A DNA stretch of 64,000 bases, from NCBI GenBank assembly GCA_025356295.1, contig JANXUJ010000102.1, forward strand, positions 5,480 through 69,479. Reading direction: 5' to 3'. The first letter of the stretch is position 1. Each line of letters starts with the position of its first letter. A program made the position numbers and the translations under genes. A model generated the notes under the pieces. That model made no database searches, was not told the origin of the DNA, and saw nothing but the letters and a program-made list of their open reading frames with translations. Shown one piece after another: positions 13,470 to 13,791 of this stretch. The DNA comes from Cyanobacteriota bacterium (GTDB taxonomy: Bacteria > Cyanobacteriota > Cyanobacteriia > Pseudanabaenales > Pseudanabaenaceae).

Positions 13470-13791
13470 ATTGCATTTCTATGCAATGGAATTTAACTTA
13501 ACATCAATTGCATTTCTATGCAATCTTTTCTGGTTGATGGCTAACAGTAAGATGTGAGGCTTCATCCCTAAAGATTCCGACAAGTTATTCAAAACGGCTT
13601 CAGTCATTAGCTGTCCGTTGAAATATTTAGACCATCTTGTTTTGTCCAAGTCCGTTAATCTTGCCAGATCGTCAAGAGACAGTTCTTTAAATTCCTTTAT
13701 AGACATAAGGTTTAGTACAATTGCATTTTTCTGCAATTGTACTCCTAAATGCTAACGCATTGCATTATCATGCATTGCATAACAATGCAAT
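13470..13791. promoter_or_regulatory. Five operator-like palindromes ATTGCA-N6-TGCAAT
   Basis: 13470-13487, 13507-13524, 13720-13737, 13759-13776 (1 mismatch), 13774-13791. Confidence 0.8.
13479..13736 (-). CDS. Cro-like XRE HTH regulator
   Basis: LSLDDLARLTDLDKTRWSKYFNG; TTG start preceded by AGGAGT. Confidence 0.8.
   Translation of the reverse strand: MQKNAIVLNLMSIKEFKELSLDDLARLTDLDKTRWSKYFNGQLMTEAVLNNLSESLGMKPHILLLAINQKRLHRNAIDVKLNSIA

Follow-up and report, generated by a model that had tools for sequence, protein, structure and literature searches.

Judged from its sequence, a 322-bp stretch in a Pseudanabaena-type cyanobacterium is a real lambda-like control region, of the ordinary on/off kind and unusually well resolved. 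The five palindromes that it carries are very probably operators through which the HTH regulator(s) of the resident element control three promoters, in an arrangement resembling that of lambda. The predicted details that make it unusual are the use of the same DNA as coding sequence, operator and promoter, a pair of overlapping sites that would act as a toggle, and two regulators that are both Cro-sized. We infer the promoters, the identity of the binder and the logic of the circuit.

The region lies in an integrated, virus-like element of 16 kb, whose bounds are marked by a gene for a tyrosine integrase (23075-24184) and a tRNA-Thr. All positions refer to the window, that is, the whole 64-kb stretch of DNA that was analyzed.

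Five palindromic sites

13470..13487, no strand: O1, exact palindrome ATTGCATTTCTATGCAAT, present at the same position in 12/12 close loci
13507..13524, no strand: O2, exact palindrome, the same 18-mer as O1
13720..13737, no strand: O3, exact palindrome ATTGCATTTTTCTGCAAT
13759..13776, no strand: O4, weak site with one mismatch, ATTGCATTATCATGCATT
13774..13791, no strand: O5, exact palindrome ATTGCATAACAATGCAAT

A sequence-only reading of this DNA had reported four exact copies of ATTGCA-N6-TGCAAT and one copy with a single mismatch, and a motif scan recovers all five at the same coordinates. The sites in fact share the extended motif ATTGCAT-N4-ATGCAAT. No further site with one mismatch or less is found elsewhere in the window, and matches with two mismatches occur there at the background rate (7, vs 7.2 expected from shuffled sequence). 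Across the whole assembly (3.46 Mb, 42.5% GC) the exact motif occurs five times, with four of the occurrences falling within these 322 bp, against an iid expectation of 0.33 per genome. The motif is therefore rare rather than common genome-wide, and the operator reading stands. The fifth exact site (G000 contig C31 12636-12653; L001 1501-1518) was set aside as consistent with chance: it is solitary and falls within a 337-aa DnaJ-like host ORF. In a second genome carrying the module (G025), the motif clusters at the switch only.

The arrangement of the sites also largely agrees with the earlier description. Two of them, O4 and O5, do overlap in the divergent gap, where they share 3 bp, and two others do lie at the 3' end of the Cro-like gene, ahead of the early operon: O2 is within codons 62-67 (LHRNAI), and O1 covers codons 74-75 and the TAG stop. 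The site placed over the Cro-like TTG start does overlap it if the TTG ORF (13479-13736) is taken as the gene, but not if the conserved start is used: O3 is then 14-31 nt upstream of ATG 13706.

Two other sequence features are seen around the proximal sites. In this genome only, a near-perfect palindrome of 47 bp (13752-13798, CTAACGCATTGCAT ... ATGCAATGCGTTAG) encloses O4 and O5. As a functional unit it was rejected: its outer 7-bp arms are specific to the window and absent in the relatives, where the half-site symmetry alone is conserved. The GTAC motifs flanking O3 were likewise rejected as a LexA box, being missing from the relatives and a poor fit to what we take to be the cyanobacterial LexA box.

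Two small divergent regulators

13479..13706, minus strand: Cro-position regulator gene, 75 aa, five-helix HTH, recognition helix DKTRWSKYF
13828..14040, plus strand: CI-position regulator gene, 70 aa, five-helix HTH_3, recognition helix GENQISRFR
14060-14638, plus strand: membrane protein gene, 192 aa, multi-pass, weak DUF3611 match, after the CI-position gene and co-oriented with it
13169-13444, minus strand: gene directly after the Cro-like gene, 91 aa, MTYPNPAGYYLPLPE..., no family match

The 75-aa HTH gene is the first gene of the leftward early (replication) operon, in which it is followed on the minus strand by small ORFs, an HNH gene and a VapE-type primase-helicase gene. A divergent HTH pair with one member heading the replication operon is what a lambda-type switch has, and this gene order is kept in all related loci. 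The start of the Cro-position gene is ATG 13706 and not TTG 13736, as M1 is invariant in 13 homologues; the 13 homologue clusters align from this Met, and the majority are called at 75 aa. Judging from these homologues, the longer ORF from the TTG at 13736 is an artefact of ORF calling. The CI-like protein had been given as 77 aa. It is likelier to be 70 aa, read from ATG 13828: the homologues have 70-72 aa and do not keep the ATG that lies upstream, at 13807. The alignment thus makes 13828 the most likely start.

The CI-position protein matches HTH_3 (PF01381) above the gathering threshold (24.2 bits vs a cut-off of 23), and its AlphaFold2 model is a single five-helix domain (pLDDT 90.8). Since Pfam finds HTH_3 alone and the model holds this one domain, the protein does lack an S24 peptidase domain, as had been proposed, and neither a C-terminal oligomerization domain nor an S24 self-cleavage domain is found on it. 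Matches of the Cro-position protein to HTH_19 (22.3/30.2), HTH_26 (20.4/22) and also HTH_31 are all below the Pfam cut-offs. Its membership of the HTH proteins thus follows from the predicted fold, in the AlphaFold2 model a confident five-helix bundle and no further domain (pLDDT 89.9). A PDB sequence search with both proteins gave no significant match, and the matches are at the level of the fold: the nearest solved folds are operator-binding dimers, namely C.Esp1396I and the N-terminal domains of DdrO and P22 c2. A search of IMG/VR with the Cro-like protein found no relative, and the family is thus absent from that collection of viruses.

A scan of neighboring genes turned up no ImmA/COG2856-type protease. 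Because both regulators lack a cleavage domain, induction by RecA-type self-cleavage appears unlikely from their sequences and models. The earlier suggestion that induction is probably not by RecA autocleavage is in this way supported, although it is still inferential.

The genes on either side have counterparts in other elements. Homologues of the 192-aa membrane protein follow the CI-like gene in L023, L033 and L034, and other relatives have a 71-aa membrane protein and a CAP/SCP-like protein in its place. The membrane gene may be a lysogen-expressed exclusion or conversion module. The 91-aa gene is kept in the same position in both close and distant elements (L023, L025, L026, L034 and L040). 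No restriction-modification genes are found nearby, the neighbors being the membrane protein, small ORFs and replication genes.

Conservation in close relatives

The close set comprises 12 distinct loci from Pseudanabaena-type genomes and from freshwater and groundwater metagenomes, with regulators that are 61-87% identical. All five sites are present in 12/12 of these loci, at offsets of 15, 39-40, 212-213 and 37 bp. The logo of the 60 sites reads (A/G)TTGCA-n5-A-TGCAA(T/C), with 2 bits per position in the core and about 0 in the flanks and at the center: half-sites are invariant and spacers are free. O4 is the weakest site in every close locus, with 1-3 mismatches in each relative. In the MAFFT alignment of the close loci, the only invariant non-coding columns are the half-sites and a few short boxes, and no second conserved motif is seen in the intergenic DNA.

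Conservation of the distal pair extends into coding sequence. Third codon positions are invariant at 5/6 places under the O1/O2 half-sites, as against 1/61 elsewhere in the gene (Fisher p=3.7e-6). Synonymous positions are thus frozen under the half-sites, which argues for selection on the DNA and not on the protein alone.

Predicted promoters

13775-13780, plus strand: predicted CI-side -35, TTGCAT, the left half of O5
13798..13803, plus strand: predicted CI-side -10, GATCAT, 17 nt beyond TTGCAT, with a predicted start near 13810
13741..13736, minus strand: predicted Cro-side -10, TACAAT, which adjoins/overlaps O3, with a predicted start near 13729; TAnnAT is conserved in the close loci
13523..13518, minus strand: predicted -35 of P2, TTGCAT, the promoter-proximal half of O2
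13495..13503, minus strand: predicted extended -10 of P2, TGT-TAAGTT, 17 nt beyond TTGCAT, with a predicted start near 13488

The built-in sigma-70 promoter/terminator scan of the region returned 0 sites. The assignments above are our own reading from conservation, and they are weak by consensus (the CI-side -10 is GATCAT, and the Cro-side -35 is poor). On the CI side, GAT(C/T)AT is invariant across the close loci although the DNA is non-coding, and the distant loci L023, L024, L025, L026 and L031 have a TTGnnn-17/18-(G/A)ATAAT counterpart. On the Cro side, the -35 position falls within O4 and is a poor match.

P2 is predicted as a second leftward early promoter, within the last 14 codons of the Cro-position gene. 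Its TGnTAnnnT is kept in the close clade despite the coding constraint, with a 4-fold-degenerate third position that is invariant and an 'n' second position that varies. At the same place, distant loci have TTGnnn-17/18-TAnnnT with other half-sites (among them L045 and L050, as judged by eye, but not L047). On this conservation, the distal pair O2 and O1 is more than a looping accessory: it brackets a conserved promoter-like element.

Relative to the predicted starts, O1 would occupy about +2..+19 of P2, O3 about -8..+10 of the Cro-side promoter, and O4 about -47..-30 of the same promoter, reaching 2 bp into the CI-side -35. The O4 center would be near -42 and the O5 center near -27 of the CI-side start. 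A lambda-like overlap of operators and promoters thus gains support from the conserved predicted -10 and -35 boxes beside the sites. As in lambda-type switches, multiple palindromic operators lie over divergent promoters, the sites being observed and the promoters predicted.

Distant relatives and other specificities

Profile searches matched the CI-like protein in 14/71 genomes of the order, and the Cro-like protein in 15/401 genomes of the class, spread over 9 genera. Members of the element family are integrated and virus-like, have a length of 8-20 kb, and occur in at least 9 genera of cyanobacteria. Distant loci keep the divergent pair and the proximal sites, and most of them also have two distal sites, spaced 30-39 bp, where the Cro-position gene has its 3' end; a site is present at the O1 position, with half-sites other than the TTGCAT type. 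The distant half-sites are TTGACT, TTGACG, TTGTAA, TTGTGA, (A)TGGTG, TTGCGT and TTGTCT. Across types, it is the inner three bases that differ, next to a constant outer TTG.

Variation also affects the spacing. In one sub-family (L028 1340-1470 and L034 1148-1280) the operators are 2 bp shorter, TTGCT-N4-AGCAA (14 bp), and two sites directly abut across the Cro-like start codon. From this spacing, the predicted dimer geometry differs inside one protein family. A single genome, G024 (contigs C367, C320 and C108; L020, L034 and L039), carries three CI-like homologues of three operator types: a TTGCAT-type orphan, TTGCT-N4-AGCAA and TTGACG. Heteroimmune elements that share a host would be expected to look like this.

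Which protein reads the sites?

In the close clade both recognition helices are invariant, and they are therefore uninformative about the reader. More distant elements do discriminate. Over 10 lineages, a small sample, with hand-checked helices, the inner triplet of the operator co-varies with residues 3-4 of helix 3 in the Cro-position protein (Mantel r=-0.45, permutation p=0.008), with residues picked after inspection and statistics that ignore phylogeny. TR or FR goes with CAT or TCT, (S/G/E)N with T(G/A)A, and (A/S/Y)Q with AC(T/G) or CGT. The recognition helix of the CI-position protein shows no correlation with operator class in the same number of lineages (p=0.58-0.85). Position 7 of helix 3 (K/R) is the same in both proteins in 9/10 elements.

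A mosaic element in Pseudanabaena sp. 'Roaring Creek' (L019/L040; G024:C367; L040 2439-3016) bears on the same question. Its CI-like gene is 96% identical to that of L008 (3/71 residues differ) and is translationally coupled behind a 120-aa XRE gene. A 64-aa RHH-like gene faces it in place of the Cro-like gene, and the early operon of this element begins with a different small protein. TTGCAT palindromes are absent from its 8.4-kb contig, and no site cluster is found in the 5.5-Mb genome. Here the CI-like gene occurs without sites; it is thus the Cro-position gene, rather than the CI-position ORF, that the operators accompany. In another locus, L047, a related 124-aa XRE gene lies downstream of the CI-like gene.

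The sequence-only reading had assumed that the CI-position protein is the reader. This is unsupported, since specificity tracks the Cro-position helix (p=0.008) and a near-identical CI-like gene exists without sites. By these comparisons it is highly likely that the 75-aa protein binds the sites, and there is about an even chance that the 70-aa protein binds the same ones. A separate motif for the 70-aa protein was also looked for and rejected: none is conserved intergenically, and none is shared with the orphan locus L040.

A model for the switch and its alternatives

In the model that we favor, the five palindromes would be dimer binding sites for the small HTH regulator(s) of the element (which extends from about 8400 to 24363). 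O5 would cover the -35 and spacer of the rightward promoter, which would drive the 70-aa regulator and the membrane protein. O3 (over -10/+1) and the weak O4 (over -35) would act on the leftward promoter of the 75-aa regulator, and O2 (-35) and O1 (+1) would sandwich P2, which would feed the replication operon with its small ORFs, HNH gene and VapE-type primase-helicase. Since O4 and O5 share 3 bp, their occupancy probably alternates, each state shutting one of the divergent promoters. The outer TTG of every half-site would also begin a -35 hexamer. The 75-aa protein is the best-supported reader. The 70-aa protein would probably compete for the same sites as the maintenance repressor, a role drawn by analogy from lambda, 434 and P22; this is the least secure step. 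Induction would take a non-RecA route, for example an antirepressor, dilution or a helper signal.

The main alternative, itself rather unlikely, is that the 75-aa protein alone reads the five sites and is itself the immunity repressor. It would autoregulate through O3 and O4 and shut the divergent operon through O5, and at O2/O1 it would both repress P2 and block read-through into the replication genes, a form of self-insulation. The 70-aa protein would then be an activator, would counteract the repressor by protein contact, or would regulate the accessory genes that follow it. It would follow, just as doubtfully, that the same DNA serves as protein code, operator and promoter, with overlapping, mutually exclusive sites toggling the divergent operon. 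Equally tentative is the simple specificity rule that would come with it, evolved several times over, in which helix residues 3-4 pair with the inner triplet, giving at least 7 orthogonal cassettes. That operator class follows only the recognition helix of the 75-aa protein speaks for a single reader, as does the mosaic element, where the operators go with the Cro-like gene and the genome has no site cluster. Sites are also present on all three predicted promoters, and O2/O1 are at the exact 3' end of the gene, where an insulator would have to be. Yet to our knowledge, the maintenance repressor of characterized temperate phages, SaPIs and ICEs is divergent from the genes that it silences, which weighs against a repressor heading the replication operon. 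The built-in scan finds no terminator after the 75-aa gene, HTH dimers are usually leaky roadblocks, and the CI-side operon, with its weak promoter and membrane proteins, looks lysogen-expressed. The K/R agreement at position 7 of helix 3 in 9/10 elements hints at a target shared by the two proteins.

Other explanations would do without regulators of the element altogether. It is very improbable that, instead of being operators of the element's regulators, the palindromes act in RNA as hairpins, whether for attenuation or processing, or are bound by a host factor. Each site could form a 6-7-bp hairpin, and in the window O4 and O5 lie inside the 47-bp near-palindrome, where hairpin-type Rfam matches are found below threshold. 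The half-sites are however invariant in sequence in the close clade, without the compensatory changes of a conserved hairpin, and with their positions on either side of the divergent starts and within -35 elements, no single RNA could contain them all. The Rfam matches at the O4/O5 palindrome are miRNA-like and far below gathering (33 vs 70 bits), and no family was retained. A host factor is excluded by the absence of the motif elsewhere in the genome and by its change between elements that share a genus or even, as co-residents of G024, a genome. That the cluster arose by local duplication, chance or neutral processes and has no function is exceedingly improbable. O1 and O2 are indeed identical 18-mers 37 bp apart, but the identity is confined to the 18 bp and the flanks differ. 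Five fixed positions have moreover survived 13-39% protein divergence, while the adjacent non-coding and synonymous positions have turned over.

The model in which the five sites are operators of the element's own regulators was also considered with DNA looping between distal and proximal sites. The distances would partly suit helical phasing (213 bp from O2 to O3, or about 20.3 turns), but the reading frame fixes this spacing. Looping is unsupported, since the proteins are single domains of 70-75 aa without obvious long-range cooperativity.

Comparison with known switches

One close likeness is to the lambdoid immunity regions (lambda OR/OL with CI and Cro; 434; P22). In these as in the element, divergent HTH genes are separated by three 17-18-bp palindromic operators. 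The first covers the lytic -10/+1, the middle one lies over the lytic -35 and touches the lysogenic -35, and the third is on the lysogenic promoter, a placement that for the element is predicted. Lambda OR1, OR2 and OR3 have the geometry that the predicted O3/O4/O5 layout matches. A second operator-controlled early promoter, predicted in the element, and immunity specificities that diversify among relatives are further points in common. The differences are also clear. Both regulators are Cro-sized single domains here (70 and 75 aa), and they have no S24 peptidase or oligomerization domain, which leaves them without a RecA route or an evident means of cooperating. In the lambdoid regions the sites that correspond to O4 and O5 are separated, whereas here they share 3 bp. 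The predicted second early promoter points the same way as the first, 213-250 bp downstream of it, and is contained in the last codons of the Cro-like gene. Binding of the same operators by both regulators in different orders of preference, as in the lambdoid switches, is here a candidate property, and the 70-aa protein falls outside the strict CI family because it has no C-terminal domain.

In the lactococcal phage TP901-1, CI (180 aa, hexameric) acts at three operators, OR, OL and OD, and MOR acts via a CI:MOR complex and its own OM sites (PMC7250872). As in the element, a small HTH protein (72 aa) heads the early operon, and the entire switch takes up less than 1 kb. Unlike TP901-1, the element has no visible second motif and no oligomerization domain. 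A further likeness is that the TP901-1 OD lies beyond the divergent intergenic region, on the early-operon side.

Controller (C) proteins of restriction-modification systems provide the nearest solved folds to the 70-aa protein (C.Esp1396I, C.AhdI and C.BclI; TM 0.65-0.73). These HTH proteins, with five helices and about 75 aa, act as dimers on adjacent palindromes beside their own -35 and pass from activation to repression with concentration. Identity is however 10-17%, the sequence and spacing of the operators differ, no restriction-modification genes are adjacent here, and the mobile element has two regulators and three promoters. The likeness is thus in fold only: the adjacent endonuclease/methyltransferase pair that marks a restriction-modification controller is not there.

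The 'stoperators' of mycobacteriophage L5 gp71 are repressor sites in transcribed early regions that can stop elongating polymerase. They are asymmetric 13-mers, about 30 in number and orientation-dependent. By analogy, O2/O1 may have a polymerase-stopping role; in contrast to stoperators, they are two palindromes which also bracket a promoter.

Concluding remarks

In the papers searched, we found no description of the control region of a temperate or integrated element in filamentous freshwater cyanobacteria. The region described here gives a first candidate parts list, with five operators, three predicted promoters and two regulators of 70-75 aa. Comparative data turn a motif recognized by eye into testable specifics: the identity of the binder, the O4/O5 toggle and the O2/O1 insulation. 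For the biology of these elements, the lack of a cleavage domain points to induction outside the SOS paradigm. If the 75-aa protein is truly the only reader, the family would be a natural set of at least 7 orthogonal repressor/operator/promoter cassettes native to cyanobacteria. More generally, the diversified specificities, if confirmed, would provide orthogonal repressor/operator pairs already suited to cyanobacterial RNA polymerase.
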